Of a stretch of DNA of 64,000 bases, positions 4,369 to 47,238 are shown piece after piece; within the stretch, counting starts at the first letter, position 1, and every line of letters starts with the position of its first letter. Source of the DNA: Kofleriaceae bacterium (GTDB taxonomy: Bacteria > Myxococcota_A > Polyangia > Haliangiales > Haliangiaceae); the NCBI GenBank assembly GCA_020633495.1, contig JACKDR010000001.1:118105-182104 (forward strand). Direction: 5' to 3'. Made by a program: the position numbers and the translations under genes. The notes below the pieces were generated by a model. That model ran no database searches. It worked only from the letters and a program-made list of their open reading frames with translations, and had not been told where the DNA came from.

Positions 4369-4512
4369 GCCGCTCGGGGCCGCGCCCCTGGCCGCGCGAC
4401 CAGGGGCGGGGCGACCTGGCGACGGGTGCGATGGCGCTCGACGGGGCTGCCCCCGGCCGATACCGTGGGTCCCGGTACCGTGGCGTCGAGCTCTCTCCCC
4501 CGCATCCAGGAC

Positions 4513-13442: not shown

Positions 13443-13511
13443 CGTGTCTTGCTAGCACGAGGGGCCGACAGCTCCCGCGGCGGTCGCGGCGCGGCGTGCT
13501 AGCGTCCCGCC

Positions 13512-26803: not shown

Positions 26804-29260
26804 GTGACTGCGCCGGCGCTGCCGTCGCGCGCCCGCGTCGTGGTGATCGGCGGCGGCATCATCGGCTGCTCGGTCGCCTACCACCTGGCCCACGCCGGGT
26901 GGGACGTCCTGGTGCTCGAGCGCGACCGCCTGACCTCGGGCACGACCTGGCACGCCGCCGGGCTGATGGTCACGTTCGGGTCGACGTCGGAGACCTCGAC
27001 CGAGATGCGCAAGTACACGCGCGATCTCTACGCCCGGCTCGAGGCCGAGACCGGCCAGGCCACCGGGTTCAAGCCGGTCGGGTTCATCGAGGTCGCCGCC
27101 GATCGCGACCGCCTCGAGGAGTACCGGCGGGTGTCGGCGTTCAACCGCCACTGCGGGGTCGACGTCGAGGAACTGTCCCCGGCGCAGGTCGGCGAGATGT
27201 TCCCGCTGGCCCGCACCGACGATCTGCTGGCCGGGTTCTACGTCGCCGGCGACGGCCGCGCCGACCCGGTCGACGTCACGATGGCGCTGGCCAAGGGCGC
27301 GCGTCAGCAGGGCGCGCGGATCGTCGAGGGCGTCGCGGTCACCGACGTCATCCGCAAGGGCCGCGCGGTGGCCGGCGTCCGCACCGCGCACGGCGACGTC
27401 GAGGCCGAGTACGTCGTCAACTGCGCCGGCATGTGGGCGCGCCAGCTCGGCGCCCGCCACGGCGTCAACATCCCGCTGCAGGCCGCCGAGCACTACTACC
27501 TGATCACCGAGAAGGTGCCGGGGCTGAGCGCGAGCTGGCCGGTGCTCGAGGATCCGGGGTCGCACGGCTACTTCCGCGAGGAGGTCGGCGGCCTGATGAT
27601 CGGCCTGTTCGAGCCGGTGTGCGCGCCGTGGCAGGTCGGCGGCGTGCCCGAGGACTTCTCGTTCGGCTCGCTGCCGCCCGACTGGGAGCGCATGGGGCCG
27701 TACCTCGAGCGCGCGATGCAGCGGGTCCCGGTGTCGATGGAGACCGGGGTCAAGAAGTTCTTCTGCGGGCCCGAGAGCTTCACGCCCGACCTGCAGCCGT
27801 GCGTCGGCGAGGCGCCGGAGCTGCGCAACTACTTCGTCGCCGCCGGCCTCAACTCGATCGGCATCCTCACCGGCGGCGGCCTCGGCCGGGTGCTGGCGCA
27901 CTGGATCATGACCGGCCGGCCCGACGTCGACGTCACCGGCTTCAACGTCGATCGCCTGCACACCTACCAGGCCAACCCCGAGTACCGGCGGACCCGCACC
28001 GTCGAGTCGCTGGGCATGGTCTACCAGTGCCACTACCCGACCCGGTCGATGCGGACCGCGCGCGGCGCCAAGACCTCGGCGTTCCACGACCGCCTGGCGG
28101 CGCGCGGCGCGTTCTTCCGCGACGTCAGCGGCTGGGAGGGCGCCGACTGGTACGCGCCCGCCGGGCAGGTCGCCGAGGAGGGCGCGCTCACCTGGGGCCG
28201 GCCCCACTGGTTCGACAGCTGGGCGGCGGAGCACCGCGCCGCGCGCGACGGCGTGATCCTGATGGACATGTCGTTCATGTCGAAGTTCCTGGTCCAGGGC
28301 CGCGACGCCGGCCGGGCGCTCGACTGGATCTCGGCCAACCACGTCGACGGCGACGCCGGCCAGATCACGTACACGCAGTGGCTCGACGACGCCGGCAAGC
28401 TGCAGGCCGACCTCACGGTGACCAAGCTCGACGACGAGCGGTTCTGGGTGGTCGCCTCCGACACCGCGCACGGCCACGTCCAGGCGTGGATGCGGCGCCA
28501 CCTCGCGCGCGACGCCCACGCCTTCGTCACCGACGTCACCTCGGGGCACGCCCAGCTCAACGTCCAGGGCCCGCGCTCGCGCGAGCTGTTGCAGGCGGTG
28601 ACCAGCGTCGACCTGTCGAACGCGGCGTTCCCGTTCCGCGCCGCGCGCGAGATCGACATCGGCTTCGCGCGGGTCTTGTGCGTGCGGATCACCTACCTGG
28701 GCGAGCTCGGCTACGAGCTGTACATCCCGACCGAGCAGGCGACCCACGTCTACGACCGCCTGGTCGCCGCCGGCGAGCCGTTCGGCCTGCGCCACGCCGG
28801 GCTCAAGGCGCTGGCCAGCCTGCGGCTCGAGAAGGCCTACCGCGACTGGGGCCACGACGTCGACAACACCGACACCGTCCTCGAGGCCGGGCTCGGCTTC
28901 GCCGTCGATCTGACGAAGCCGGGCGGCTTCCTCGGCAAGGACGCGGTGGTGGCACAGAAGGCGGCCGGGCCGCTGCACAAGCGCCTGGTCCAGGTGCTGG
29001 TGCAGGATCCGACGCCCCTGATGTTCCACGCCGAGATCGTCCACCGCGACGACCGCGCGGTCGGCTACGTGCGCGCGGCGTCGTACGGCCACACCCTGGG
29101 CGGCGCGGTCGGCCTGGCGATGATCGAGGCCGACGAGCCGATCGACGCCGCGTGGCTCGCGCGCGGCCGCTGGGAGATCGACATCGCCGGCGTCCGCTAC
29201 CCGGCGGTGGCGTCGCTGCGGCCGCTCTACGATCCGAAGAACGAGCGGGTCAAGGCGTAG
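26804..29260 (+). CDS. FAD-dependent oxidoreductase fused to GcvT-like aminomethyltransferase domain (dimethylglycine/sarcosine dehydrogenase family)
   Basis: An N-terminal DAO-type FAD motif (VVVIGGGIIGCSVAYHLA) is joined to a C-terminal folate-binding GcvT-like domain. The ORF is clean at 818 aa. Confidence 0.8.
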   Translation: MTAPALPSRARVVVIGGGIIGCSVAYHLAHAGWDVLVLERDRLTSGTTWHAAGLMVTFGSTSETSTEMRKYTRDLYARLEAETGQATGFKPVGFIEVAADRDRLEEYRRVSAFNRHCGVDVEELSPAQVGEMFPLARTDDLLAGFYVAGDGRADPVDVTMALAKGARQQGARIVEGVAVTDVIRKGRAVAGVRTAHGDVEAEYVVNCAGMWARQLGARHGVNIPLQAAEHYYLITEKVPGLSASWPVLEDPGSHGYFREEVGGLMIGLFEPVCAPWQVGGVPEDFSFGSLPPDWERMGPYLERAMQRVPVSMETGVKKFFCGPESFTPDLQPCVGEAPELRNYFVAAGLNSIGILTGGGLGRVLAHWIMTGRPDVDVTGFNVDRLHTYQANPEYRRTRTVESLGMVYQCHYPTRSMRTARGAKTSAFHDRLAARGAFFRDVSGWEGADWYAPAGQVAEEGALTWGRPHWFDSWAAEHRAARDGVILMDMSFMSKFLVQGRDAGRALDWISANHVDGDAGQITYTQWLDDAGKLQADLTVTKLDDERFWVVASDTAHGHVQAWMRRHLARDAHAFVTDVTSGHAQLNVQGPRSRELLQAVTSVDLSNAAFPFRAAREIDIGFARVLCVRITYLGELGYELYIPTEQATHVYDRLVAAGEPFGLRHAGLKALASLRLEKAYRDWGHDVDNTDTVLEAGLGFAVDLTKPGGFLGKDAVVAQKAAGPLHKRLVQVLVQDPTPLMFHAEIVHRDDRAVGYVRAASYGHTLGGAVGLAMIEADEPIDAAWLARGRWEIDIAGVRYPAVASLRPLYDPKNERVKA

Positions 29261-29823: not shown

Positions 29824-30456
29824 CTACCGCCGGGCGCCGGCGCGGCCGCGCAGCTGGCGGAGCCGGGTGTGCTCCTCGCGCTCGCGCTCGTCGAGGGCGC
29901 GGCCGATCGCGGCGATGCGGTCGCGCAGCGCCGGGGCGACGCGCTGCTCGAGGGTGTGCAGCTGCCGCGAGGTGCGCGCCAGGGCCTGGCCGAGCGAGCG
30001 GACGTGGAGCTCGCGCGACGCGGCGTCGAGCAGGACCGCGGCGAGCCGCTCGAACCGGTTGGCGGCCTCGAACAGCGCCGGGCCGGTCGCGCCCGGCGCG
30101 GTGCCGCGCGCGGCCAGGCCGCGGTCCCACACCGGCAGCTCGGCGAGGCGCGGCACGGTCACGCCCCAGACCCGCGTCACCTCGACGTCGACGACCAGCT
30201 CGCGCGACGGCCAGCCGGTCGCGGCCACCGCGCCGGCGCCGTCGATCGCGAGGGCGTCGAGCTCGGCGCGGTACGCGGCCGCGGCGGCGTCGCCGATGAC
30301 GCGGCGGGCGTCGGCCGCCGGCTGGGCCAGCGGGAACAGCTCGCGGACCAGCGCCTCGCGCTTGCGGCGCAGCAGCGCCGCGCCCTTGGCGACGCGCGCC
30401 AGCAGGCGCCGGCTGCGCAGCAGCTCGGCCCGGGTCGGCGCCGCCCGCGCCCTCAC
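29824..30456 (-). CDS. atpD: V/A-type ATP synthase subunit D
   Basis: GTG 30456 is preceded by GGGGAGGG. The N-terminus VRARAARPTRAELLRSRRLLARVAKGAALLRRKREAL is typical of subunit D. The start overlaps the B stop as GTGA. Confidence 0.8.
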   Translation of the reverse strand: MRARAAPTRAELLRSRRLLARVAKGAALLRRKREALVRELFPLAQPAADARRVIGDAAAAAYRAELDALAIDGAGAVAATGWPSRELVVDVEVTRVWGVTVPRLAELPVWDRGLAARGTAPGATGPALFEAANRFERLAAVLLDAASRELHVRSLGQALARTSRQLHTLEQRVAPALRDRIAAIGRALDEREREEHTRLRQLRGRAGARR

Positions 30457-31841
30457 GCGCCCTCCCCGGCCGCGGCGCCGGGCCGACGCGCCCAGGTGTC
30501 GTCGTCGAGGCGCTCGAGATCGTCGCGCGGCAGCGACTCGAGCAGGCGCCAGCCGGCCGCGATCGTGTCGGCGATCGTCCGCCGGGTCGCGCCCTGGCCG
30601 ACCAGCTCGCGCTCGAACCGGGTCGCGAAGCCGAGGGCGCGACGATCCGGATCGCTGAGCCCGGCCTCGCCGACGATCGTCGCCATCATCCGGGCCTCGC
30701 GGCCGCGCGCGTAGCTGGCGTACAGCTGGTCGGCCCAGCGCCGGTGCTCGCGCGCGGTCTTGCCGGCGCCGATGCCGGCGTTCATCAGCCGCGACAGCGA
30801 CGGCAGCACGTCGATCGGCGGGAACACGCCCTGGGCGTGCAGCTCGCGCGACAGCACGACCTGGCCCTCGGTGATGTAGCCGGTGAGATCCGGGATCGGG
30901 TGGGTGATGTCGTCGTCGGGCATCGTCAGGATCGGCAGCTGCGTCAGCGAGCCCGCGCGGCCCTGCAGCACGCCGGCGCGCTCGAACAGCGTCGCCAGGT
31001 CGGTGTACATGTAGCCGGGGTAGCCGCGCCGCCCCGGCACCTCGTCGCGCGCCGCCGCGACCTGGCGCAGCGTCTCGCAGTAGTGCGCGACGTCGGCCAT
31101 GACCACGAGGACGTGCATGCCGGCCTCGAAGGCGAGGAACTCGGCCTGGGCCAGCGCGTAGCGCGGCGTCAAGAGCTGCTCGATCGTCGGATCGCGGGTC
31201 TCGTTGAGGTACAGCACGCTGCGCGCCATCGCCGGGCTGTCGCGGAACCGCTCGACGAACAGCCGGGTCTCGCGCGCGGTGATGCCGATCGCGGCGAACA
31301 CCACCGCGAACGGCTCGCCGCCGCCGGCGCGGGCGTGCTCGACGATCTGCGCGGCCAGCTCCAGCGCCGGCAGGCCGGCGCCCGAGAACACCGGCAGCTT
31401 CTGGCCGCGGACCAGCGTATTGAGGCCGTCGATCGCGCTGACCCCGGTCTCGATGACGTCGCCGGGCGGGTGGCGCCGCGCCGGGTTCATCGGCGCGCCC
31501 CACACCGGCCGCAGCGCCTCGCCGATCGGCGCCGGCAGGCCGTCGAGCGGCGCGCCGACGCCGGTGAGCGTGCGCCCCAGCAGATCGCGCCCGACCGGCG
31601 CCTCGGCGACCGCGCCGGTCAGCGTGATCGTCACCCGCGCCGGCGACAGCCCCTGCGGATCCTCGAGGATCTGGATCACCGTGACGCCGTCGCCGGCGTC
31701 GATGACCTGGCCGCGCCGCGCCGGCTGCCCCGGCTGGGTCAGCTCGACGACCTCGCCCATCGCGGCGCCGCGGGCGTCGTCGAGGAACAAGAGCGCGCCG
31801 GCCAGGGCGCGCGCGCCGCGATGGTGGCGGACCGCGATCAC
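30453..31841 (-). CDS. atpB: V/A-type ATP synthase subunit B
   Basis: GTG 31841 is preceded by GGGAGGTG and overlaps the A stop. The sequence is strongly subunit-B-like (GQKLPVFSGAGLP, RGYPGYMYTDLATLFERAG). Confidence 0.85.
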   Translation of the reverse strand: MIAVRHHRGARALAGALLFLDDARGAAMGEVVELTQPGQPARRGQVIDAGDGVTVIQILEDPQGLSPARVTITLTGAVAEAPVGRDLLGRTLTGVGAPLDGLPAPIGEALRPVWGAPMNPARRHPPGDVIETGVSAIDGLNTLVRGQKLPVFSGAGLPALELAAQIVEHARAGGGEPFAVVFAAIGITARETRLFVERFRDSPAMARSVLYLNETRDPTIEQLLTPRYALAQAEFLAFEAGMHVLVVMADVAHYCETLRQVAAARDEVPGRRGYPGYMYTDLATLFERAGVLQGRAGSLTQLPILTMPDDDITHPIPDLTGYITEGQVVLSRELHAQGVFPPIDVLPSLSRLMNAGIGAGKTAREHRRWADQLYASYARGREARMMATIVGEAGLSDPDRRALGFATRFERELVGQGATRRTIADTIAAGWRLLESLPRDDLERLDDDTWARRPGAAAGEGA

Positions 31842-33622
31842 GGGGCACCTCCCGCGGGCCGGCGGTGCAGCGCCGCGATCGCGGCCTCGACCGCGGCGGC
31901 GCGCGCCGGCAGCTCGTCGCCGGGGCCGGTCCGCAGCGCCGCGAACGCGCGCCGCACCGCGACCAGCTCGAGCTCGTCGATCGTGGCGCCGGCGTCGAGC
32001 GCGGCCTCGGCGGCGTCGAGCGTGGCGACCGCGAGCTGCGCCATGCACCCGGTCTTCTCGACCGACGACGACGCGTCGTTGGGGTCGAACGCGCTCTGCC
32101 CCAGCAGGTGCTCGCGCACCATGCGCGCGACCTCGATCGTCGCGCGGTCGCGATCCTGCAGGGCCTCGTGGCCGAGCAGGCCGGCGATCTCGCGCAGCTC
32201 GGCGTCGCGCTGCAGCAGCCCGAGCACGCGCGCGCGCAGCTCGGCCCACGGCACGCCGGCGCGCTCGGTCAGCCACGACGCGGTGGCGTCGACGTACAGC
32301 GAGTAGCTGGTGGCCCAGTCGACCGCCGGGAACTGGCGCTTCTGGGCCAGCGCCGGATCGAGCGCCCACAGCCCGCCCGCGACCCGCAGCGACGCCTGGG
32401 TCACCGGCTCGGCGAAGTCGCCGCCCGGCGGCGACACCGCGCACACCAGCGACACCGCGCCGGTGCGCGCCGGCGTGCCGTGGACGCGGGCCCGGCCGGC
32501 CCGCTCGTAGAGCTGGCCGAGGCGGCTGGCCAGGTGGGTCGGGTAGCCCTCCTCGCCCGGCATCTCCTGCAGCCGCGCCGCGATGTCGCGCAGCGCCTCG
32601 GCCCACCGCGACAGGCTGTCGACCATGACCGCGACCCGGTAGCCCATGTCGCGGTAGTACTCGGCGATCGACACGCCGAGGTAGACCGAAGCCTCGCGCG
32701 CGACCACCGGCATGTTCGAGGTGTTGACGATCAGCACGGTGCGCTCCATGACCGGGCGGCCGGAGCGCGGATCGACCAGGCGCGGGAACTCCTGCACCAC
32801 CTCGGCCATCTCGTTGCCGCGCTCGCCGCAGCCGACGAAGACGACGACGTCGGCGGCGGCGTGGCGGGCCAGGCCGTGCTCGATCACGGTCTTGCCGGTG
32901 CCGAACCCGCCGGGCACCGCGATCGTCCCGCCCTCGGCGAGGGGGAACAGCAGATCAAAGACGCGCTGGCCGGTGACCAGCGGCCGGTCGGCGGGCAGCC
33001 GCTCGGCCACCGGGCGCGGCTGCCGCAACGGCCAGCGCTGGGCCAACCGCACCACCGTGCCGTCGCCGAGGCGGCCGACCGGCTCGTCGACGGTGACGTC
33101 GCCGCCGCGCAGCTCGACGACCTCGCCGCCGGCGCCGGGCGGGACCAGGACGCGGTGCTCGAAGCCCGGCTGCTCCTCGACGACGCCGAGCAGGTCGCCG
33201 GCGGCGACCTGATCGCCGACCGCGGCGCGCGGCTCGAAGCGCCAGCGCCGCGCCGGATCGAGGGTCGGCGCCGCGGCGCCCGGCGCGACGAAGTCGCCGC
33301 TGGCCGCAGCCAGCTCGCGCAGCGGCCGGCCGACGCCGTCGAGGATCGCGCCGAGCAGGCCGGGGCCGAGCGCGACGGTCAGCGGCGCGCCGGTGGCCAC
33401 CACCGGGGCGCCCAGCGCCAGCCCGGTGGTGTCCTCGTAGATCTGCAGCACCGCGGCGTCACCGGTGAACCGGATGATCTCGCCGAGCAGGCCGTGGGCG
33501 CCGACCCGGACCAGCTCGTAGAGCCCGGCGTCGCGCAGCGGCCGGGCCTCGGCGAGCGTGCCGGTGACCCGGGTCAGGACCGCGCCCGGCGTCGCGGTCG
33601 TCGTCGTCGTCGCGCTGGTCAT
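31838..33622 (-). CDS. atpA: V/A-type ATP synthase catalytic subunit A
   Basis: A P-loop GGFGTGKT is present, with GER...E and a conserved C-terminal region. ATG 33622 overlaps the F stop as ATGA. Confidence 0.85.
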   Translation of the reverse strand: MTSATTTTTATPGAVLTRVTGTLAEARPLRDAGLYELVRVGAHGLLGEIIRFTGDAAVLQIYEDTTGLALGAPVVATGAPLTVALGPGLLGAILDGVGRPLRELAAASGDFVAPGAAAPTLDPARRWRFEPRAAVGDQVAAGDLLGVVEEQPGFEHRVLVPPGAGGEVVELRGGDVTVDEPVGRLGDGTVVRLAQRWPLRQPRPVAERLPADRPLVTGQRVFDLLFPLAEGGTIAVPGGFGTGKTVIEHGLARHAAADVVVFVGCGERGNEMAEVVQEFPRLVDPRSGRPVMERTVLIVNTSNMPVVAREASVYLGVSIAEYYRDMGYRVAVMVDSLSRWAEALRDIAARLQEMPGEEGYPTHLASRLGQLYERAGRARVHGTPARTGAVSLVCAVSPPGGDFAEPVTQASLRVAGGLWALDPALAQKRQFPAVDWATSYSLYVDATASWLTERAGVPWAELRARVLGLLQRDAELREIAGLLGHEALQDRDRATIEVARMVREHLLGQSAFDPNDASSSVEKTGCMAQLAVATLDAAEAALDAGATIDELELVAVRRAFAALRTGPGDELPARAAAVEAAIAALHRRPAGGAP

Positions 33623-33951
33623 CGCAACCTCAGGCGGTAGCCGACCGACTGCCGCAGGATCTCCAGCAGCTCCTCCTCGGGCGCCGGCCCGGCCGCGCCG
33701 AGCGCCGGTCCCGGGAACGGCATCAGGATCGGCGTGCCGTCGCGGCGCAGCTGGCGCCGCAGCGGTGCCGGCAGCGCGTCGTAGAGCGCGCGCTCGATCA
33801 GGATCACGCCGCCGTGATCGGCGCGGCGCGCCAGCCGCGTCACCGCCGCCGCCGCCGCCGCGCCGTCGGCGACCTCGGTGCACGCCAGGCCGGCCAGGCC
33901 CAGGCCCAGCGCCGCCGGGCGCCGCGCGATCGCGTGGATCGGCGCCTTCAT
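33619..33951 (-). CDS. atpF: V/A-type ATP synthase subunit F
   Basis: ATG 33951 is preceded by GGGAGG. The protein is 110 aa (MKAPIHAIARRPAALGLGLAGLACTEVADG...GVILIERALYDALP...). The remainder of its long ORF upstream is junk. Confidence 0.7.
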   Translation of the reverse strand: MKAPIHAIARRPAALGLGLAGLACTEVADGAAAAAAVTRLARRADHGGVILIERALYDALPAPLRRQLRRDGTPILMPFPGPALGAAGPAPEEELLEILRQSVGYRLRLR

Positions 33952-34933
33952 CGGCCGCCTCCCATCGCGACCCGCCACGCGGCGCGGCGGACGCGCCGGA
34001 CCTCGGCGCGGCGCCGCAGCACCAGCCACACCACCGCCGCCGGCCCGGCCGGATCGACGACGCGCAGCCGCCGCTGGGTCTCGAGGTGCCAGCGCAGCGC
34101 CGCGCGATCGAGCGCGTCGGCGTCGCCGCCGCGCAGCGCGCCGACCAGCGGCGTGCCGACGAAGACGCCGGCCAGGACGTCGCGCGCGCCCTCGACTGGC
34201 CGGCCGCGGCGGCGCGGAACGCGGCGCGCCCGAGGTGGCCCCGCCCGGCACCATCGCGGCGGCGACGTCGACGTCGCCCCGCGCCGCCAGCATCAGCGCG
34301 GCGCCGGCGTTCTCGACGTCGACGACCTGGGCGACGTGGACCGCCAGCGGCCCGGCCGGGGCGCCGGCGCGGGCCCGCCGCGCGAACGCGCGCGCCATCG
34401 CGTGCTCGGCCGCGTACAGGTCGACCGGCGCGTGCGCCAGCGGCGTCGCCAGCGCCGCGGCCAGCGGGTGACCTCGCCGGCGCAGCCGCGCCACCAGGTC
34501 GGCGGGCGAGGCCGCGGCGGCCAGCTCGCGCAGCTCGGCGTCAGGCAAGCGCGGCGTCGGGATCGCGGCGGCCAGGCGCGCCGCGATCGGCGCGCCGGCG
34601 GCGAGACCGCGGATCAGGGCGCGCAGGGCGCGCCGGTCCTCGTCGTCGAGGATCACCGCCAGCGCGCGCTCGGCGGCGGCGCCGGCGCCGCAGGCCCAGC
34701 GCGCCAGCGCGGTCAGATCGTCGCCGGCGCGGGCCAGCGCGGCGGCCTCGATCGCCCTCGGGCGAGCCGTCGCCGAGGATCGCGCGCGGGAAGCTGGCGC
34801 GATCGAGCGCGGCGACCAGCGCGCCGCGATCGGCGGCGTCGTCGACCGCGCCGAGCGCGTCGTCGTCGACGAGGTGGGTGCCCAGGCCGTGCGCCCGCGC
34901 CGCCACCGCGACCCACGTGCCGGCGCCGGTCAC
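33948..34933 (-). CDS. atpC: V/A-type ATP synthase subunit C (d-type); span not a multiple of 3, at least 2 internal frameshifts
   Basis: GTG 34933 is preceded by GGGGAGGG and overlaps the E stop as GTGA. The N-terminal part (VTGAGTWVAVAARAHGLGTHLVDDDALGAVDDAADRGALVAALDRASFPRAILGD) is in one frame. The middle part (...HAMARAFARRARAG...VDVENAGAALMLAARGD) is in the subunit-F frame. The C-terminus is inferred to end at the TGA overlapping atpF's ATG. Confidence 0.5.
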
Positions 34934-35538
34934 GCCGCGCCCTCCCCGGCCGGCGTCGGCGCCGCGGCGGGCGCCGCCTCGACGCGCAGCCGCGGCCACC
35001 ACCGCGCCAGCAGCGTCGTCAAGCGTCGCGTCGATCGTGACCCGGCCGCCGTCGAGCTCGACGCGCACGCCGGTCGTGACCTCAGGATCGGCGACGACCC
35101 GCAGCGCTGGCGCCCCGGTCGCGGCGAGCCGCGCCTGCACCGCCGCCAGCCGCGCCGGCGCGCACCGGACCTCGCCCGCCGCGCCGCCGGCGCCGCGACC
35201 GCGCCGGCGACCAGCGCGTCGCGCAGCCGCGCCCCGGCGTCGCCGTCGAGCAGCCCCGGCAGCGCCGCCTCGAGCGCGGCGCGGACCCGCGCCAGGGCGG
35301 CGGCCCGCGCGGTCAGGACCTCGGCGTGGACCCGGCGCGCCACCGTCGCCACCGCCGCGTCGGCCTCGGCCTGGCGGCCGATGCGATAGGCCTCGATCTC
35401 GGCGGCGGTGTCGGCGTCCCGGCGCGCCGTCGCGTCGGCGATCAGGCGCGCCGCGTCGACGCGCCCGGCCTCGCGGATCGCGTCGGCGTCGGCCGCGGCC
35501 TCGGCCTCGAGCGCGCGCAGGAGCTCGGCGATCGCCAT
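34930..35538 (-). CDS. atpE: V/A-type ATP synthase subunit E; central ~60 codons in another frame (two compensating shifts)
   Basis: The N-terminus MAIAELLRALEAEAAADADAIREAGRVDAARL... and the C-terminus (...LLARWWPRLRVEAAPAAAPTPAGEGAA*) are in ORF 34930..35538. The conserved middle segment (EVRCAPARLAAVQARL...VRVELDGGRVTIDATLDDAA) is in the frame of ORF 34541..35755. Confidence 0.6.
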   Translation of the reverse strand: MAIAELLRALEAEAAADADAIREAGRVDAARLIADATARRDADTAAEIEAYRIGRQAEADAAVATVARRVHAEVLTARAAALARVRAALEAALPGLLDGDAGARLRDALVAGAVAAPAARRARSGARRRGWRRCRRGSPRPGRQRCGSSPILRSRPACASSSTAAGSRSTRRLTTLLARWWPRLRVEAAPAAAPTPAGEGAA

Positions 35539-35547
35539 GGCGCGACC

Positions 35548-35766
35548 TCAGCCCCCTCGCAGGACGATCAGCACCGCGACGACGAAGCCCAGGATCACCA
35601 TCGTCTCGGGGATGGCGACCAGCAGCACCGCGGTGGTGCGCAGCTCGGGCTTCTCGGCGAGCGCGCCCGCGACCGCCGCGCCGATGCGGGACTGGGCCCA
35701 GGCGGTGGCGAGCGCGCTGCCGGTGATGGCGAGGGCGGCTCCGACGGCGATCCACAGGGCTTCCAT
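35548..35766 (-). CDS. atpK: V/A-type ATP synthase subunit K (proteolipid, c-subunit)
   Basis: ATG 35766 is preceded by GGAGG. The protein MEALWIAVGAALAITGSALATAWAQSRIGAAVAGALAEKPELRTTAVLLVAIPETMVILGFVVAVLIVLRGG is a two-helix hairpin with the conserved Glu. Confidence 0.75.
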   Translation of the reverse strand: MEALWIAVGAALAITGSALATAWAQSRIGAAVAGALAEKPELRTTAVLLVAIPETMVILGFVVAVLIVLRGG

Positions 35767-35776
35767 GACAGGCCTC

Positions 35777-37653
35777 CTAGGGGCTGGCGACCGATCCGGG
35801 GCTCCAGTGGGCGAACGGCTGGTACCGCCCACCGCCCGGACTGAAGAACGTGCCGAAGAACTCCACGTAGTGCAGGCGCAGGACGTGGATCGTCGGGCTG
35901 AACAGCGCGATCGCGAAGTTGACGAGGTGGAACAGCAGCGCGAAGACGACGCCGATCACCGCGCCGCCGAACGCGCCGACCATCCGGTTGGCGACCACCG
36001 CGAGCATCACCGACGCGGTGCCCAGCGCCATGACGCGGGCGTACGACAGGACGTGCCCGACCGTGGTCAGGAGCTCGAGCAGCGCGGTCGCGCCCTCGAG
36101 CGCGATCAGGATCGGGAACGCGACCAGCAGCGCGACGATCGCGGGCGTGAACAGCGCGTGGGGCAGCAGCTCGAAGACGGTCGCCAGCGCCAGCGCGATC
36201 AGCAGGAGCATCAGCGCGGTCAGGCCGCGCCCGGCGGCCTCGCGCGGGTGGCCGCGCCGCGAGATCGCGGACACCACGAGCCCGAGCAGCATGTGGACCA
36301 GGCCGAGCGCGATCGCCAGGCCCAGGAACGGCAGCACCGCGTCCTCGCGGTCGAGCCACAGCGGCCGCATGCCGAACCAGCGCTCGCCGAGGTCGCCGAA
36401 CAGCTCGCCGTAGAGGACGCCGAAGATGATCATGTAGCTGGCGACCGCGGCCGCGATCTTGGCCAGGTCGCGGGCCAGGCCGCGACCCCGGCCCCGCGCG
36501 AACAGGATCGCCGCGATCGTCGCCAGCAACAGGCCGTAGCCGACGTCGCCGACGATGATGCCGAACAGCATCGGGAAGAACACCGCGACGAACGGGGTCG
36601 GGTCGACGCTGCCGTAGCGAGGCAGCGGCAGCATCGCGGTCAGCCGCTCGAACGGCTCGAAGACCCGCGGGTTGGTCAAGACCACCGGCGCCTCGGCGCC
36701 GCGCCAGTGGTCGCGCCCGACGGTCTCGACGACGACGGCGTCGCCGAGGCGGGCGTGCAGCTCGGTGGCGAGCGCGGCGCGGGCCCGCGCCGGCACCCAG
36801 CCCTCGACGACGAACGCGCGCGCGGTCTCGGCCGCGACGCCGCGGGCCTCGAGCGCGAGCAGCTCGTCGTGGAGGCCGCGCCGGGCCCGCACCAGCTCGG
36901 CGCCGACGGCGTCCCGCAGCGCCGTCGCCGCGGCCTCGACCTCGGCGAGCTCGCGCTCGAGCTCGGCCAGGCGCGGCCGCAGCCGCGGCAGCGCGTCGAT
37001 CAGCGGCGCGCCGGCGAGCCCGACCGGCACCGCGGCGCGCTCGACGGGCGCCGGCGAGCAGCCGGTCGACGACGTCGCCGCGGCCCTCCGGGACCAGCAG
37101 CAGCAGCGCCAGCTCGCCGCTGGGCAGGGCGTGCGATCGCAGCTCGCAGGCGCCGTCGAGCGTCCGCTCCAGCGCCTCGCGCAGCCGCGCCAGCGTGCCG
37201 GCGCCGCCGCGCTGCAGCCGCAGCAGGTGGGCCGCGAACCGCCGGTCGACGCGGTCGCCGCCGAGCAGCGCCTCGAGGTCGGCGACCAGCGGCGCCCAGG
37301 GCGCGCAGCGCGTCGCGCTCGTCGGTGAGCGCGCGGGCGCGGCGGTGCAGCCGGCCGGCGTCGCGCGCGTCCGGGCCGCCAGCCGCGCCGCCGCGCGCTG
37401 CGGTCGGCGCGGCGCCGCCGTCGTCGCCGCGCTGCCACGGCACGCCGAGCTCGGCCAGCGCGGTCAGCGCGACCTCGACCCGGGTCAGCACGCGATCGAC
37501 GTCGCGGTGACGACGTCGCTCGGCCGGCGACGCCTGGCGCCGCGGCAGCGCGTCGTCGGGCGGCGGCTCCAGGTGGACGGTGCCCAGATCCTGCAGCGCC
37601 GCGAGCGTGCGCGCGAGGTCGGCCTTGCGCCCCATCAGCCGCACGCGCGTCAT
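35777..37653 (-). CDS. atpI: V/A-type ATP synthase subunit I (a-subunit); N-terminal cytoplasmic domain needs 2 frameshifts (approx 37030-37110)
   Basis: The N-terminus MTRVRLMGRKADLARTLAALQDLGTVHLEPP... begins at ATG 37653. A short segment (SHALPSGELALLLLVPEGRGDVVDRLLAGA) lies in a third frame. The membrane domain, about 450 aa with multiple TM helices, is in ORF 35777..37438. Confidence 0.65.
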
Positions 37654-37661
37654 CTCGATGA

Positions 37662-38021
37662 TCACCCGGCCCCCTCGATCAGCGCGGCGAGCCGGACGGC
37701 GAGCCGGCGGGCCTCGTCGGCGAGCGCGTCGCCGACCAGCGCGTCGTGGCGGCGACGCCCGGTCGCGCCCTCGGCCTCGAGCGCGGCGATCCGCGCGGCG
37801 GTGGCGGCGGCGATGCGATCGTCGACCGCGCGACACGCCGCCAGCAGGAGCCCGGCCCGCGCCCGCTCGGCGTCCTCGACCTCGGCCTGGGCGACCTCGC
37901 GCCGGGTCGCGGCCTCGGCGCGAGCCTCGGCGAGCAGGTGCTCGAGCCGTCGCTCGGTGTCGACGAGCGCCTCGAGGTCGGCCGCCGGTGCGGCCCTCGG
38001 CAGGTGCGCCTGACGGGCCAT
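37662..38021 (-). CDS. V/A-type ATP synthase subunit G/H-like (small coiled-coil stator subunit)
   Basis: The 119-aa all-helical Ala/Glu/Arg-rich protein MARQAHLPRAAPAADLEALVDTERRLEHLLAEARAEAATRREVAQAEVEDAERARAGLL... is the first gene of the operon. The call rests mainly on position. Confidence 0.55.
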   Translation of the reverse strand: MARQAHLPRAAPAADLEALVDTERRLEHLLAEARAEAATRREVAQAEVEDAERARAGLLLAACRAVDDRIAAATAARIAALEAEGATGRRRHDALVGDALADEARRLAVRLAALIEGAG

Positions 38022-38206
38022 CGCGTCCGCAAGGCTGCATCGGGCATGCCACCGGTCGGACGCGCCCGCTGGCGCACTGGCCCGAGCTGAGGCCGCCGCG
38101 GCGGGCTCGGTAGCAAGCGTTGCGCGCGGTCCGCGGCCGCCGGGCACCGGTTGCGCGCGCCGCGACCGTGCTTGACGGCGCGCGGCCACGCTGGTCTGCT
38201 GCGCCG

Positions 38207-39610
38207 ATGTGCCCGCGTCGGCTCGCACTGACCACCGCCGCCACCGCGGCCGCCCTGGCCGCGACGGCGACGCTGGCGCTGGCGCTGACCGCGTGCGGCG
38301 ACACCCGGGCCGACGCCGACGCCGCGGCCGCCACCGGCGACGCCGGCGTCGACGCGACGCCGCCGGATCCGGGGCCGACCCGCTACCCCGCCGACACCCC
38401 ACGCTCGCCGATCACCCCGGCGGTCGCGACCCGCCTGCGCGCGATCGCCGCCGCCGGTCCGGCCCAGCGCGATCGGATCTTCCTCAAGGCCGGCGCGTCG
38501 GGCACCGTCAGCCGCAACCTGTTGTACTGCCTCGCCGGTCCCGACCACCAGCCCGGCTACCGGATCGATCTCGACGGTCGCGACGCCCTGCAGCCCACGA
38601 TCGATCGCTTCCGCGCCGAGCTCGTCGCGGGCGACACGTCGTTCGATCGTCCGACCCTCGCCGCCGAGGTCGGCCGCACCGCGCGCTGGGTCCTGACCGG
38701 CGCGCCGTCACCGCTCGACCAGGAGCTGGCGGCGACCACGCCGCGGTTTGCCTTCGTCAACTACGGCACCAACGACATGGAGGCCGCGACCAGCTACGGC
38801 GCGGCGCTGGCGCCGTTCTGGGACGCGATGAACGAGCTGCTCGATCGCCTCGAGGCCGACGGCGTCGTGCCGATCATCACCGGGCTCAACCCGCGGAGCG
38901 ACCGCGCCGAGGCGACGCGGTGGGTGCCGACCTGGGACGCCGTGACCCGCGCCCTGGCCGAGGCGCGTCAGCTGCCGTACTACAGCCTGTACCTGGCGTC
39001 GTCGCCCCTGGCCGACGCCGGCCTGCTCGGCGACGGCCTGCACGGCAACGTCCTGATCGAGGCCGGGGCCGCCCAGCCGTGCGTCTTCACCGCCGCCGGC
39101 CTGGCCTACAACTACGACGTCCGCAACCTGGCGTCGCTCGAGCTGCTCGACGCCACCAGCCGGATCGTCCTCGACGGCGCGGTCGCGCCCGACGTCGCGC
39201 CGCTGCCGCCGATCGCGGGCCAGGGCACGGCGGCGGCGCCGTTCGTCGTCGACCGCCTGCCGTTCACGCACACGTTCACGACCGTCGGCGGCGAGGCGCT
39301 CCGCGACGGCTACCCCGGCTGCGACGCCGGCCAGGACGAGAGCGGTCCCGAGATCGTGTACCAGCTCGACCTCGCCGCGCCCATCCGGTTCCGCGCGGTG
39401 GTCCTCGACGGCCCGGACGTCGACGTCGACGTCCACGTCCTGGTCGACGGCGCGTGCGTCGAGCGCGCCGACCACTACCTCGATCGCGCGCTGCCCGCCG
39501 GCTCGCACCGGATCGTCGTCGACAGCTTCGTCAGCGGCGGCGTCGCGCAGGCCGGCACCTACACGCTGGTGCTGCTGACCTGTGAGGTCGGCGACGCAGC
39601 CTGCGAGTGA
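38207..39610 (+). CDS. secreted lipoprotein, SGNH/GDSL-hydrolase-like N-domain plus beta-rich C-terminal domain
   Basis: The start MCPRRLALTTAATAAALAATATLALALTACGD carries a lipobox. An FVNYGTNDM motif is present. The gene is divergent from the ATPase operon. Confidence 0.55.
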   Translation: MCPRRLALTTAATAAALAATATLALALTACGDTRADADAAAATGDAGVDATPPDPGPTRYPADTPRSPITPAVATRLRAIAAAGPAQRDRIFLKAGASGTVSRNLLYCLAGPDHQPGYRIDLDGRDALQPTIDRFRAELVAGDTSFDRPTLAAEVGRTARWVLTGAPSPLDQELAATTPRFAFVNYGTNDMEAATSYGAALAPFWDAMNELLDRLEADGVVPIITGLNPRSDRAEATRWVPTWDAVTRALAEARQLPYYSLYLASSPLADAGLLGDGLHGNVLIEAGAAQPCVFTAAGLAYNYDVRNLASLELLDATSRIVLDGAVAPDVAPLPPIAGQGTAAAPFVVDRLPFTHTFTTVGGEALRDGYPGCDAGQDESGPEIVYQLDLAAPIRFRAVVLDGPDVDVDVHVLVDGACVERADHYLDRALPAGSHRIVVDSFVSGGVAQAGTYTLVLLTCEVGDAACE

Positions 39611-39665
39611 GGGTCGCGAAAACATTGCGGGTGGCGCCGCCCCGGCCCGTGACCACATTGACCTC

Positions 39666-40781
39666 ATGCGGTCGCCACACGTCGTGGTCATGTTGACCCT
39701 GGTCGCGGGCTGCGGAGTCTCGGCGGACGGGCGCACCGGCGGGCCCGACGCCAGCGTGGAGGTCGACGCCGCGGGCAACGCCGACGCGACGGTGTCCTGC
39801 CAGCTGCCGCCGCTGGCCGCCGGGGTCAGCACCCTCGCCGGCTGCGCCGACCCCGGCGCGATCGACGGCGCCCGTGGCGTGGCCCGGTTCGCCAACCCGG
39901 TCAACGTCGCGCGCGGTCCCGACGGCGACCTCTACGTCGCCGACTTCGACAACGACGCGATCCGCGTCGTCGCCGCCGACGGCGCGACCCGCACGCTGGT
40001 CGCCCAGGCCGACTTCGCGAAGCCGTTCGGCCTCGCCTTCACCGGGGACGGCGTCCTCTACGCCCAGACCGACGACGACGACCTCGGCCAGCACTCCGGC
40101 GACACCGGCACGATCTGGCGCGTCGATCTCGACACCGGCGACGCCACCGTCGTGGTGCGCGACGTCGGCCGCCCGCGCGGGCTCGCCGCCCTGCCCGACG
40201 GCCGCCTGGTGCTGTCGGACTACGTCCACCACACCATCCGGCTGCTGGCCCCCGCCACCGGCGTGATCAGCGCCCTCGCCGGCAGCGCCGATCGGCCCGG
40301 CGACGTCGACGCCGTCGGCGGCGCGGCCCGCTTCGACGGCCCGTACGACGTCGCGATCCTCCCCGACGGTCGGATCGCGGTCGCCGATCAGCACAACGAT
40401 CGCGTCCGCGCGATCGCGCTCGACGGCACGGTCACGCCGCTGGCCGGCACCGGCAGCCCCGGCGCGACCGACGGCGCGGCCCTGACCACGGCGCGGTTCC
40501 ACGCCCCGGCGGCCCTGGCGATCGACGGCGAGGGCACGCTGTACATCACCGACACCGACAACTTCGTGGTGCGCGCCCTGCGCGACGGCGAGGTCTCGAC
40601 GATCGCCGGCGACGGCACCGGAGGCTGGCGTGACAGCGAGGATCCCCTGGCCGCGCAGGTCTACGGCCTCGAGGGGGCCGACGTCAGCGCCGACGGCGCC
40701 ACGCTGTGGCTGGCCGACGGCAACCGCGGTGAGGCCGAGCCCTACAACCGCGTCCGGACGGTCACGATGAACGAGCCATAG
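39666..40781 (+). CDS. NHL-repeat beta-propeller lipoprotein (paralog 1)
   Basis: The start is MRSPHVVVMLTLVAGCGVSADG. Repeated RFxxPxxVAxxPDGxLYVAD/TDTxNxxVR blocks are typical of NHL repeats. Confidence 0.65.
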   Translation: MRSPHVVVMLTLVAGCGVSADGRTGGPDASVEVDAAGNADATVSCQLPPLAAGVSTLAGCADPGAIDGARGVARFANPVNVARGPDGDLYVADFDNDAIRVVAADGATRTLVAQADFAKPFGLAFTGDGVLYAQTDDDDLGQHSGDTGTIWRVDLDTGDATVVVRDVGRPRGLAALPDGRLVLSDYVHHTIRLLAPATGVISALAGSADRPGDVDAVGGAARFDGPYDVAILPDGRIAVADQHNDRVRAIALDGTVTPLAGTGSPGATDGAALTTARFHAPAALAIDGEGTLYITDTDNFVVRALRDGEVSTIAGDGTGGWRDSEDPLAAQVYGLEGADVSADGATLWLADGNRGEAEPYNRVRTVTMNEP

Positions 40782-40858
40782 TCGCCGGCCGACGTTTCGA
40801 GGTCCCAGCAACATCGAGAACGGTGCCCGCCGGCGCGAGCCGTGGTCTACTCGGGACC

Positions 40859-42166
40859 ATGCCAGTCGAGCGGATGCTCGTGTGTGTGATCTTGATCGCT
40901 GGGTGTGGCAGCGGAGGAGCCTCGCCTCCTGACGCCGGCGACATCGACGGCGCCCCCGGCGACGTCAGCACGAGCCCGGACGCCGGGCCCGACGCCGACC
41001 TCGACGCCACGCCGCCCGATGGCATGGCGATCGATGCCATGCCGATCGACGCCGCCCCGATCGACGCCGCCCCGATCGACGCCATGCCGATCGACGCCGC
41101 CCCGATCGACGCCGCCCCGATCGACGCCATGCCGATCGACGCCACGCCGATCGACGCCATGCCGATCGACGCCATGCCGACCTGCGTCGTGCCGGCCTTC
41201 ACCACCGGCGTCAGCACCCTGGCCGGCTGCGAGATCGCCGCCAACGTCGACGGCGCGCGCGCCGACGCGCGCTTCGCCAACCCGGTCAACGTCGCGCGCG
41301 GTCCCGACGGCGACCTCTACGTCGCCGACTTCGACAACAACGAGGTGCGGGTCGTGACCGCGGCCGGCGCCGTGCGCACGCTGGTGGCCCAGACCCACTT
41401 CGTCCGGCCGTTCGGGATCGCGTTCACCGCCGCCGGCGCGCTGTACGTCCAGACCGACGACGACGATCTCGGCGCCCACTCGGGCTCGACCGGAACCGTC
41501 TGGGAGGTCGACCTCGTCACCGGCGTCGCCACCGTGGTGGTCCGCGACGTCGGCCGGCCGCGCGGCCTCGCCGCCCTCGCCGACGGCCGCCTGGTCCTGT
41601 CGGACTACGTCCACCACACGATCCGTCTGCTCGATCCCGACACCGGCACGATCACCGATCTCGCCGGCGCCACCGACCTACCCGGCTACGCCGACGACGT
41701 CGGCGCCGCCGCACGCTTCGACGGTCCCTACGACGTCGCGGTCCTCCCCGACGGCCGGATCGCGGTCGCCGACCTCTTCAACCAGCGGATCCGCGCGGTC
41801 GCGCTCGACGGCACCGTGACCACGCTGGCGGGCACCGGCACGCCCGGCGCCACCGACGGCGACGCCCTCACCACCGCGACCTTCCAGTATCCGGTCGGCC
41901 TCGCCGTCGACAGCGCCGGCGACCTGTACGTCACCGACACCGGCAACTTCGTCGTCCGCAAGCTCGCCGCCGGCGCCGTGACCACGGTGGTCGGCGACGG
42001 CACCGGCGACTGGCTCGACAGCGACAACCTGCTGGCGGCGCGGCTCTACGGCCTCGAGGGCGCCGACGTCAGCGCCGACGGCGCGACGCTGTGGCTCGCC
42101 GACGGCAGCCGGGGCGAGGCCCTGCCGTACAACCGCGTCCGCGTCGTCGACCTGACCGGCCCCTAG
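40859..42166 (+). CDS. NHL-repeat beta-propeller lipoprotein (paralog 2) with (P-I-D-A-x)n linker
   Basis: The start is MPVERMLVCVILIAGCGSGG. A run of about 30 PIDAA/PIDAM/PIDAT pentapeptides lies at about 41020-41185. The NHL core that follows shares long identical stretches with paralog 1 (ARFANPVNVARGPDGDLYVADFDN...). Confidence 0.65.
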   Translation: MPVERMLVCVILIAGCGSGGASPPDAGDIDGAPGDVSTSPDAGPDADLDATPPDGMAIDAMPIDAAPIDAAPIDAMPIDAAPIDAAPIDAMPIDATPIDAMPIDAMPTCVVPAFTTGVSTLAGCEIAANVDGARADARFANPVNVARGPDGDLYVADFDNNEVRVVTAAGAVRTLVAQTHFVRPFGIAFTAAGALYVQTDDDDLGAHSGSTGTVWEVDLVTGVATVVVRDVGRPRGLAALADGRLVLSDYVHHTIRLLDPDTGTITDLAGATDLPGYADDVGAAARFDGPYDVAVLPDGRIAVADLFNQRIRAVALDGTVTTLAGTGTPGATDGDALTTATFQYPVGLAVDSAGDLYVTDTGNFVVRKLAAGAVTTVVGDGTGDWLDSDNLLAARLYGLEGADVSADGATLWLADGSRGEALPYNRVRVVDLTGP

Positions 42167-42801: not shown

Positions 42802-44433
42802 CTAGATCTCCTCGGCCACCATCTCGATCGCGCCGCACGGGCACTCGCGCGCGCACACGCCGCAGCCCTTGCAGAAGTCGAGGTCGAAGCGGAACCGCTT
42901 GCCCGGCCCCAGCTTGATCACGGCGTTGTCGGGGCAGACGCCGAAGCAGTTGTCGCACTCGAAGCAGTTGCCGCACGACAGGCAGCGACGCGCCTCGAAC
43001 AGCGCCGTGGTCTCGTCGAGGCCGCCGTGGACCTCGGCGAACGTGCCGACCCGACGCGCCATCTCGAGCTGCGGCTGCACCGTGCGGTCGGCGTCGACGT
43101 AGTACCAGGTGTTGAGCCGATCGAACCCGGCCGGCGCGTGCTTGGCGGCGGGCTCGTAGGCGCCGCCACGCAGGTAGGCGTCGATGTGGCGCGCCGCCTT
43201 CTTGCCGTGGCCGACCGCGACCGTGATCGTGCGATCGGCGGGCACCATGTCGCCGCCGCAGAACAGGCCCGGGTACCCGGTCATCAGATCGGGGCCGACC
43301 TCCACCGAGCCGTCGGGCGTGAACCGGACCCCGGGCACCGCGCGCAGCGGCGTCAGGTCGACCGCCTGGCCCAGCGCGAGCACCAGCGTGTCGCCGGCGA
43401 TGGTCTCGAGCTCGCCGGTCGGCACCGGCTTGCCGTCGGCGCCGAGCGTCATCTTCTCGATCGTCAGCTCGCCCTCGCCCATCTCCTTGACCGTCGACAG
43501 CCAGCGGACCAGGACGCCCTCCTCGAGCGCCTCGCGCAGCTCGTCCTCGTGCGCGGGCATCTGGGCCTGGGTCCGGCGGTAGACGATCACCGCGTCGGTG
43601 GCGCCCAGCCGCTTGGCGGTGCGCGCGACGTCGAGGGCGGTGTTGCCGCCGCCGTAGACGACGACCCGGCGGCCGAGCAGCGGCGCGTCGCCGAGCCCCT
43701 CGACCTGGCGCAGGAGCCCGATGGCGTCGAGGATCTTGCCGGCGTCGGCGGCGGGGATGTCGACCCGCTTGGCCAGGTGGGCGCCGACCGCCGCGAAGCA
43801 GGCGTCGAAGCCGCCGTCGCGCATCGCCGCCGGCAGATCGTCGACCCGGACCCCGAGCTCCAGCCGCACGCCCATCGTGACGATGCGCTCGATCTCGGCG
43901 TCGACGATCTCGCGGGGCAGCCGGTAGCGCGGGATGCCGTAGCGCATCATGCCGCCGGCGCGGGGCATGGCGTCGCGGATCGTGACGTCGTGGCCGAGCC
44001 GCGCCAGGTGGTAGGCGGCGGCCAGGCCGCTGGGCCCGGCGCCGACCACCAGGACCCGCTTGCCGGTGGCCGCGGCCGGCGCCGGCGCCGGCCAGCCCTC
44101 GCGGATCGCCAGATCGCCGAGGAACCGCTCGACCGCGTGGATGCCGACCGCCTCGTCGAGCTGGGCGCGGTTACAGGCGCCCTCGCAGGTGTGGTAGCAG
44201 GCGCGTCCCATCACCGCGGGCAGCGGGTTGTCGTCGAGGATCGCCTCCCAGGCGGCGCGGTAGTCGCCGGCCTCGGCGTGGTAGAGCCAGCGCTGCACGT
44301 CCTCGCCGGCCGGGCAGGTCGCGTTGCACGGCGGCAACCGATCGACGTAGGTCGGCCGCTGGGTGCGCCACGACCCGGTGTGGTTGTGGAGGCTCGATCC
44401 GGGATCGAGGGTGATCGCGAACGGCTTCTTCAC
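42802..44433 (-). CDS. GltD/SudA-like NAD(P)H-dependent FAD oxidoreductase with C-terminal 2x[4Fe-4S] ferredoxin domain (last gene of por operon)
   Basis: GTG 44433 is preceded by GGGAGG and overlaps the porB stop as GTGA. The N-terminal Cys cluster (CNATCPAGE...CYHTCEGAC) and dinucleotide-binding folds (VLVVGAGPSGLAAAY, VVVYGGGNTALD) are present. The C-terminus carries CLSCGNCFECDNCFGVCP and CKGCGVCARECPCGA. Confidence 0.75.
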   Translation of the reverse strand: MKKPFAITLDPGSSLHNHTGSWRTQRPTYVDRLPPCNATCPAGEDVQRWLYHAEAGDYRAAWEAILDDNPLPAVMGRACYHTCEGACNRAQLDEAVGIHAVERFLGDLAIREGWPAPAPAAATGKRVLVVGAGPSGLAAAYHLARLGHDVTIRDAMPRAGGMMRYGIPRYRLPREIVDAEIERIVTMGVRLELGVRVDDLPAAMRDGGFDACFAAVGAHLAKRVDIPAADAGKILDAIGLLRQVEGLGDAPLLGRRVVVYGGGNTALDVARTAKRLGATDAVIVYRRTQAQMPAHEDELREALEEGVLVRWLSTVKEMGEGELTIEKMTLGADGKPVPTGELETIAGDTLVLALGQAVDLTPLRAVPGVRFTPDGSVEVGPDLMTGYPGLFCGGDMVPADRTITVAVGHGKKAARHIDAYLRGGAYEPAAKHAPAGFDRLNTWYYVDADRTVQPQLEMARRVGTFAEVHGGLDETTALFEARRCLSCGNCFECDNCFGVCPDNAVIKLGPGKRFRFDLDFCKGCGVCARECPCGAIEMVAEEI

Positions 44434-46672: not shown

Positions 46673-47238
46673 CGCGCGGGCTCCGGGCGGGTCAGCGCGA
46701 AGGTGGCGGCGGCCGCCGCGGCGTTGCGCTCGCCGACGTCGCCGGCGAAGCGCTCGCGGATCGCGGCGCGCAGCGAGTCGAGCGCGACCGCGCCGGTGAG
46801 GCCGGCGAAGCCGCCGAGCAGCGCGGCGCTGGGCAGCGGCCGACCCAGGTGGGCGCGCGCGATCTCGGTCGCCGGCACGCAGCGAGCGTGGCCGCGCGGG
46901 AACCGCTCGACCCACTCGGCGAGGCCGAGGTCGGCGAAGCCGCGGCTGGAGTTGACCAGGACCCAGCCGTCGTCGTGCAGCCCGGCGAAGACGTCGAGCG
47001 ACTGCAGCAGCGTCGGATCCTGGACGACGACGACATCGGGCGCGGTGATGGGCTCGCGCAGCCGGATCGGCTCGTGGTCGAGCCGGCAGAACGAGACCAC
47101 GGGCGCCCCCATCCGCTCCGAACCGAAGCTGGGGAAGGCCTGCGCGTACTGCCCCTCGCGGAAGGCGGCGAACGACAGCAACTCGGCGGCGGTGACGACG
47201 CCCTGGCCGCCACGACCATGGATGCGTATCTCGAGCAC
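46666..47238 (-). CDS. porG: 2-oxoacid:ferredoxin oxidoreductase gamma subunit
   Basis: GTG 47238 begins [22 protein letters not shown], a canonical PorG start. The upstream part of the ORF is junk. Confidence 0.75.

Follow-up and report, generated by a model that had tools for sequence, protein, structure and literature searches.

A Thermus-type V/A-ATPase operon in a GC-rich Kofleriaceae genome, with frame breaks in subunits I, E and C that most likely are assembly errors

The DNA analysed here is a 64,000-nucleotide stretch (the window) of contig JACKDR010000001.1, a 662,764-bp contig that belongs to a metagenome-assembled genome (MAG) of a Kofleriaceae bacterium with locus tags H6708_. 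On its minus strand lies a nine-gene V/A-type ATPase operon in the order G-I-K-E-C-F-A-B-D, which spans positions 29824-38021 (read 38021 -> 29824) and in which the genes for subunits I, E and C are broken in frame. We consider it very probable that this is a complete ATPase operon of the Thermus kind, and that the breaks in I, E and C are single-base assembly indels that were never corrected. Assembly error is the most likely source of the frame breaks, and to judge from the sequence the organism itself most likely has an intact, functional operon. Other assemblies bear on this: at the five of the nine indel sites for which an independent copy is available (37393, 37369, 37290, 34236 and 34199) those assemblies are unshifted, so the breaks that would mark a pseudogenised operon are not reproduced there in independent sequence.

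GC content is extremely high throughout the window, at 72-82% when taken in 2-kb steps (mean 0.76, and 0.78 in the operon), so that long open reading frames (ORFs) are open in all frames and ORF lists alone are untrustworthy. Strand and reading direction were set by a frame plot of GC content at third codon positions (GC3), which is 0.95-1.0 in the coding frame, together with a stop-codon map. The genes, given below in reading direction and with their stop codons included, are G, a peripheral-stalk coiled coil of 119 aa with an ATG start at 38021 (38021->37662); I, the stator a-subunit (37665->35777); K, the proteolipid c, a single hairpin of 72 aa (35766->35548); E, of the peripheral stalk (35538->34930); C, the rotor socket d or AC39 (34933->33948); F, of 110 aa (33951->33619); the catalytic subunit A, of 594 aa (33622->31838); B, of 462 aa (31841->30453); and D, a central-stalk subunit of 210 aa and the last gene of the operon (30456->29824). 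G, K, F, A, B and D have intact frames, I and C are frame-broken, and E is an open ORF with an internal segment out of frame. Stop and start codons overlap as GTGA at the G/I, E/C, A/B and B/D junctions and as ATGA at C/F and F/A; the I/K and K/E junctions have spacers of about 10 nt and no overlap. Most start codons in the operon are preceded by GGAGG-type ribosome-binding sites. A preliminary description of this DNA had given the same extent and gene order, the 4-nt overlaps other than that at G/I, strong ribosome-binding sites of this type, and intact A, B, D, F and K genes, all of which are borne out by our reading; the strand, the G/I overlap and the intact frame of G are additions to it. 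A scan for promoters and terminators found no promoter-like site and two terminator-like sites, both within genes, and no second alpha/beta-type ATPase paralogue is present in the window.

Subunits A and B identify the complex. The translation of A shows the motifs GFGTGKT and GERGNEM, and its Pfam domains are ATP-synt_ab_N, ATP-synt_ab_Xtn (70 bits, the V/A-specific insert), ATP-synt_ab (234 bits) and ATP-synt_VA_C (53 bits). On NCBIfam model NF003220 it reaches 715 bits (cut-off 470), which makes it a V/A-type catalytic subunit, against a range of 100-190 bits on the rival F1 and FliI/SctN models (133 bits for F1 beta, about 180 for FliI/SctN and 185 for SctN). Among solved structures it scores highest with A of Pyrococcus horikoshii (1vdz, 629 bits), followed by Thermus (586 bits) and Enterococcus hirae (549 bits), with F1 beta at 145 bits. 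B, deposited as MCB9558892.1, is likewise of V/A type, with 624 bits on NF003235 (cut-off 349) and the Pfam domains ATP-synt_ab and ATP-synt_VA_C. It is barely conceivable that the cluster encodes an F-type or a flagellar or type III secretion system (T3SS) ATPase instead: such an assignment has the shared alpha/beta fold in its favour and nothing more, and it runs against the scores just given, the presence of ATP-synt_ab_Xtn and ATP-synt_VA_C in A, and the families of I, C (AC39), D, F and K, which are V/A-specific. The preliminary description had called the operon V/A-type and left open to refutation both the grouping of A and B and the homology of K and I; A and B score as V/A-type far above the F-type and flagellar/T3SS ATPases, and Pfam families match both K and I.

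The remaining subunits agree with this assignment to different degrees. D matches Pfam ATP-synt_D (97.9 bits) and TIGR00309 (87.6 bits, cut-off 72.25), and F matches Pfam ATP-synt_F (25.0 bits, cut-off 23.5), with just 16.8 bits on the NCBIfam model, under its cut-off; profile searches thus recover both central-stalk subunits. The exact F protein is also found in a sister MAG (H6709_00515) and in the short-read contig L081, both described below. K matches Pfam ATP-synt_C (59.5 bits) as a proteolipid with its membrane carboxylate at E54, and an identical K protein occurs in 11 short-read contigs and 3 NCBI MAGs. I matches Pfam V_ATPase_I (66.9 bits); its gene is split over three frames, and the joined protein of 629 aa matches intact I subunits of 617-646 aa over their whole length (100% coverage) with identities that reach 67%, aligns over residues 1-619 with residues 1-646 of Thermus subunit I (E 5e-39), and conserves the stator arginine, with LRLHYVEFF opposite IRLIWVEFF of Thermus. 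C is a full-length subunit only after correction, when Pfam AC39 matches over positions 3-327 of 339 with 57.3 bits (cut-off 29), as against a partial match of 27.7 bits before it. Corrected E matches Pfam vATP-synt_E over positions 3-190 of 199 at 18.9 bits, below the cut-off of 24.2, and aligns over residues 1-197 with E of the orthologous operon L003 (E 3e-15) and over residues 3-192 with E of L002 (E 3e-19); the uncorrected ORF aligns with the same two proteins over the first 116-128 residues only. G has no match in Pfam, NCBIfam or PDB. A homologous coiled-coil ORF of about 100-120 aa stands directly upstream of I in L002 (E 4.6e-14, 39% identity) and L003 (E 1e-5), and a G-like ORF is visible in L004 and L008 in the translations only, where the tblastn match is not significant. 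The exact G protein is deposited as MCB9558898.1 and MCB9570544.1. Taken from sequence, these matches support the view that the locus would encode a complete V/A-type ATPase in the Thermus/Enterococcus gene order.

Frame changes within the genes were called by segmentation with a six-frame hidden Markov model (HMM) of GC3, which places net changes of frame without stop codons at about 37290, 37046, 35174, 34751 and 34196. Intact homologues (L002-L008) match I in three frames of the window and C in three. The indels form two clusters. The first (37046-37393), in the N-terminal domain of I, consists of sites at about 37393 (+C), 37369 (-C), 37290 (+C, CC->CCC) and 37046 (+1, in a CCC run); I is accordingly read in one frame over 37665->~37290, in a second over ~37290->~37046 and in a third over ~37046->35777, with two net shifts and, in addition, the compensating insertion/deletion pair at 37393 and 37369. 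The second cluster (34199-35180), in the C-terminal half of E and in C, consists of sites at about 35180 (-1, in a GGG run), 35010 (+1), 34751 (+1, in a GGG run), 34236 (-C) and 34199 (-G), the first three of which were positioned from frame and homology. In E the ORF of 202 codons stays open through one deletion and one insertion that put about 57 codons (~35180->~35010) in another frame; residues ~120-177 as read are an Arg/Cys/Trp-rich nonsense sequence, and the other frame gives the canonical C-terminal domain of E, ...LRVVADPEVTTGVRVELDGGRVTIDATLDD. C carries the last three indels of the cluster, and the intact C of L003 matches it in three window frames. The 100-nt context of the nine sites has a GC content of 0.80-0.89 with a mean of 0.85 (0.83-0.89 in the first cluster and 0.80-0.89 in the second), compared with the operon and window values given above. 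A homology search with E and C concatenated returned one distant match and was dominated by low-complexity Ala/Arg words. The breaks had been seen in outline before: two compensating shifts around some 60 codons of E were described and are found here, at least two shifts were expected in C and three are counted, and the two shifts described in I hold as net shifts, a count slightly low because it leaves out the compensating pair. The statement that three subunits are frame-broken is true of this sequence; as a property of the organism it finds no support: wherever a comparison was possible, independent assemblies of the species are intact, and a sister MAG is broken elsewhere.

Those assemblies are of two kinds. 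Short-read contigs of the same species are 99.6-100% identical to the window, and in them C and the start of I each run in one frame; the species is present in the short-read runs SRR12358675, SRR12358676, SRR15882951, SRR17907852 and SRR23493598. Contig L081 (Logan assembly of SRR17907852), 99.6% identical to 34593->33258, has the C-terminal 215 codons of C in a single frame, followed by F and A; compared with it the window is one base short at two places, near 34236 (CCC->CC) and near 34199 (GGG->GG). Contig L092 (SRR23493598), a 99.9% match to 39953->37340, is without the +C/-C pair of the window at 37393/37369, and its reading AARLAART... fits the I homologues where the window's RGGAAGGP... 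does not. Two more contigs, L093 and L094, are 100% identical to the window over 2.5 kb. The window differs from L081 and L092, over about 4 kb in all, by 4 indels and an equal number of substitutions, which is an indel-heavy spectrum, and three of the four single-base differences from the short-read contigs fall at runs of two or three identical bases. The second kind is the sister MAG (H6709_, on a 304,894-bp contig), whose A is identical to that of the window and whose B differs by 2 aa. Its I fragment, P0122, passes 37393, 37369 and 37290 in one frame (...DALRAWAPLVADLE... / ...DERDALRAWAPLVADLEALL...), and since it reads the last of these sites in frame it would have CC where the window has CCC. 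P0122 itself goes out of frame after ELRSHA, where the window stays in frame. In the sister MAG, F also stands as a gene of its own with 110 aa, and E and C have a single accession each. Because the two same-species assemblies have frameshifts that do not overlap, we attribute these to random consensus error and not to inherited mutation. Exact contig look-ups of the A, D and P0122 proteins returned no record, and a 31-mer across the E/C junction was not found in a scan of JGI metagenomes, which were also the source of none of the exact K matches.

The distribution of the indels suggests how such errors might have arisen. The short-read contigs stop at 37446, 37430 and 37340 and restart at 36957, with ends just outside both indel clusters; because the indels sit in GC-extreme stretches flanked by such ends, short-read drop-outs and an unpolished consensus would account for them. 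In a very GC-rich MAG, a long-read consensus would be left unpolished wherever short-read coverage drops out, the use of long reads for H6708 being suggested by the sizes of its contigs. That homopolymer indels in nanopore assemblies need short-read polishing is well documented (PMC9262707).

The principal alternative is that the operon is truly decaying in this strain, with real frameshifts that inactivate I, E and C before the catalytic genes. The concentration of breaks in three genes while six others are spared is what such decay would produce, and since H6708 and H6709 differ (by the two residues in B), each might carry mutations of its own; nevertheless, we regard decay as unlikely. No frameshift is common to both MAGs at comparable sites, and the short-read contigs are intact in frame, L093 and L094 at 100% identity on the flanks and L081 and L092 at 99.6-99.9%. 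Joining the frames restores I, E and C to full length, collinear with intact homologues, with conservation that reaches each junction and with no nonsense codon or larger lesion in the joined genes. The breaks include two compensating pairs, whose members are separated by 24 and about 170 nt; within the shifted segments the GC3 signal shows no loss, and a housekeeping gene elsewhere in the window, RecQ, is broken likewise. Several points nonetheless weigh against assembly error. Indel density in the operon is about 6-10 times that of detectable net frame changes elsewhere in the window, and A, B, D, F, K and G carry none, a pattern that selective decay of accessory subunits would also give. 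Comparison with independent copies leaves out four sites (37046, 35180, 35010 and 34751), and the sequencing platform of H6708 is deduced from contig sizes. H6709 is a distinct strain, so that differences between the MAGs could in principle be real, and neither the four E variants nor the two C variants that we reconstructed had an exact match in the collection searched.

Two further alternatives would give the shifts a biological meaning. The differences at homopolymers might reflect real heterogeneity in the population, with strains that switch or lose the V/A-ATPase through slippage in I, E and C while the catalytic head stays intact; to us this seems quite improbable. Still more remote is the idea that the shifts themselves are functional, through programmed ribosomal frameshifting or slippage phase variation that governs expression of the three genes. 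Several of them are located at short G or C runs, as slippage would have it, but the runs are just 2-3 nt long, the sites number at least nine and go in both directions, and no slippery heptamers were seen on reading them. Moreover, a single frame serves for the orthologues in L001-L008 and for over 100 homologues of I, so that the shift sites are not conserved in orthologous operons, and the same-species contigs are unshifted. Uncorrected assembly indels thus remain the explanation that we prefer.

The breaks have passed into the GenBank annotation. The uncorrected E ORF, with its approximately 57 garbled codons, is an exact match to MCB9558895.1 (H6708_00645, 34933-35538 on the minus strand), a 'hypothetical protein'. 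The ORF 34656->33622 is an exact match to MCB9558894.1 (H6708_00640), also a 'hypothetical protein', and is a chimera of 345 aa in which the central part of C is followed by out-of-frame sequence and then by F.

Other breaks of frame occur in the window. The RecQ gene (11566-13451, minus strand) encodes DEAD, Helicase_C, RecQ_Zn_bind and RQC domains in the frame 13451->11772, and HRDC (59.9 bits) in a different one, 11769->11566; the frame changes without a stop codon, probably through another assembly indel. The GC3 HMM gives further candidate frame changes without stops at 7851 and 8065 (plus strand), at the C-terminus of a large Ser/Thr-kinase/STAND-like gene (~4500-8258), and at 17175 (minus strand), between the N-terminal extension and the domain of an RluA-type pseudouridine synthase (17991->16284). 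A candidate at 56690 was discarded: it marks an ordinary junction between genes, with a stop at 56832.

To judge from their homology to the solved Thermus complex, the nine products would form a catalytic head of A and B subunits (A3B3), with D and F as the central stalk, which C (d) would connect to a ring of single-hairpin K subunits; E and G would be the peripheral stalks that hold the stator I (a). The overlapping stop and start codons would couple translation of the genes. The assembled complex would carry out ion-driven ATP synthesis or ATP-driven pumping. Its K subunit bears on the coupling ion. K has Q25 and the motif P53-E54-T55, and it aligns with the Thermus K chain (6qum_O; LIAVGMGLAVGLAALGTGVAQARIGAA...LLLPETLVIFG in Thermus, WIAVGAALAITGSALATAWAQSRIGAA...VAIPETMVILG in the window) and with both halves of the E. 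hirae proteolipid NtpK (2bl2), such that E54 falls opposite E139 of NtpK and the Glu of the Thermus PET motif. The Na+ ligands of NtpK, a set reportedly described by Murata and colleagues in 2005, we take to be L61, T64, Q65, Q110 and E139. Their equivalents in K are I52 (L61), T55 (T64), M56 (Q65), Q25 (Q110) and E54 (E139). K therefore has neither the duplicated four-helix 16-kDa form of a Na+-type proteolipid nor the full ligand set. Because the Q65 position is hydrophobic (Met), as in the H+-coupled Thermus enzyme, H+ is the better guess, and the sequence suggests that coupling to H+ is more likely than to Na+. The preliminary description had raised Na+ pumping as a possible specialisation and proposed a look at the ion-binding residues of the c subunit; with Met56 in place of Q65 and a c subunit that is Thermus-like and not of the Enterococcus Na+ type, a Na+-specialised reading finds no support.

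Among characterised systems the V/A-ATPase of Thermus thermophilus (5gar, 6qum, 5y5x) is the closest model. It has the same nine subunits in the same gene order, which in Thermus we take to be atpG-I-L/K-E-C-F-A-B-D, a single-hairpin proteolipid of 72-74 residues in which the Q...P-E-T site is shared and the Q65 position is hydrophobic (Met here, Leu in Thermus), and a subunit I that aligns end to end with its stator Arg conserved. The window differs in that its host is a Kofleriaceae member of the Myxococcota with about 76% GC, that its A scores slightly higher with Pyrococcus A, and that its G is too diverged for any profile or solved chain. The E. hirae Na+ V-ATPase (ntp operon) shares the core order I-K-E-C-(F)-A-B-D and the match to A given above, and Q25 and E54 of K have Q110 and E139 of NtpK as their counterparts. 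In contrast, NtpK is a duplicated four-helix protein of 156 residues where K is a single hairpin of 72, the Na+ ligand Q65 is replaced by Met56, and a survey of the flanks found no ntpH/ntpJ-like genes in the window operon, these genes presumably being part of the E. hirae ntp gene content. The archaeal A1Ao synthase supplies the top-scoring solved A subunit, that of P. horikoshii, but the host of the window is a bacterium and its A lies in a separate bacterial clade.

The nearest relatives are orthologous operons (L001-L008; P0001-P0120) of Kofleriaceae, Myxococcales, Gemmatimonadota and 'delta proteobacterium' MAGs, which have the same G-I-K-E-C-F-A-B-D order, A subunits 61-79% identical to that of the window and full-length I subunits up to 67% identical; they differ from the window in that I, E and C, broken here, are each single-frame there. 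Genome scans give Kofleriaceae at 79% identity as the closest A subunits, then Gemmatimonadota at 63-67% and 'delta proteobacterium' MAGs at 61-63%, and the next ones, at about 50%, come from Methanomicrobia archaea and from bacteria such as Nitrospirae. For I, more than 100 full-length homologues (50-67% identity) are found in Kofleriaceae, Myxococcales, Gemmatimonadales and some Acidobacteriota MAGs. The phylogenetic check that the preliminary description had called for was run for A, and in a rough neighbour-joining tree without support values A falls inside the bacterial clade of these orthologues. The same description had thought the operon likely to be horizontally acquired. A recent acquisition finds no support, as the GC content of the operon is close to that of the window and orthologues are widespread in the same family and in Myxococcales. 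From the ordinary GC content, the spread of orthologues and the position of A within its clade, we read the operon as a trait typical of the lineage, so that any transfer between phyla would be ancient. No publication on V/A-ATPases of Myxococcota or Gemmatimonadota turned up in a literature search.

The genes on either side have no obvious functional tie to the ATPase. Downstream and convergent is a dimethylglycine/sarcosine-dehydrogenase-like gene with DAO, FAO_M and GCV_T domains (26804-29257, plus strand), and upstream and divergent is a GDSL-lipase-like gene (38120-39607, plus strand). Beyond the latter lie two adjacent paralogous genes for NHL-repeat proteins (39582-40778 and 40823-42163, plus strand); the start of contig L092 matches three places there (39817-39953 at about 100%, 41202-41338 at 85% and 40258-40369 at 74%), and the region therefore holds repeated DNA. 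Further on, at 42805-47208 on the minus strand, is a 2-oxoacid:ferredoxin oxidoreductase cluster (POR gamma, POR_N/PFOR_II alpha and TPP-binding beta) followed by a Fer4_20 and Pyr_redox_2 protein that resembles the small subunit of glutamate synthase; every junction in this cluster is an overlapping or adjacent stop/start.

In sum, the locus belongs to a known system, is ordinary in kind and has been annotated before; what appeared unusual in it is most likely an artefact. Its main value is as a warning: what looks like a broken operon in a MAG of very high GC content is very probably an assembly artefact, one that already stands in the GenBank annotation, and pseudogene counts or an inferred bioenergetic loss drawn from such MAGs would mislead. 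For the family, it adds one more Thermus-like V/A-ATPase in Myxococcota, in a clade shared with Gemmatimonadota, and has a modest and unsurprising bearing on the transfer of A/V-ATPases between phyla.

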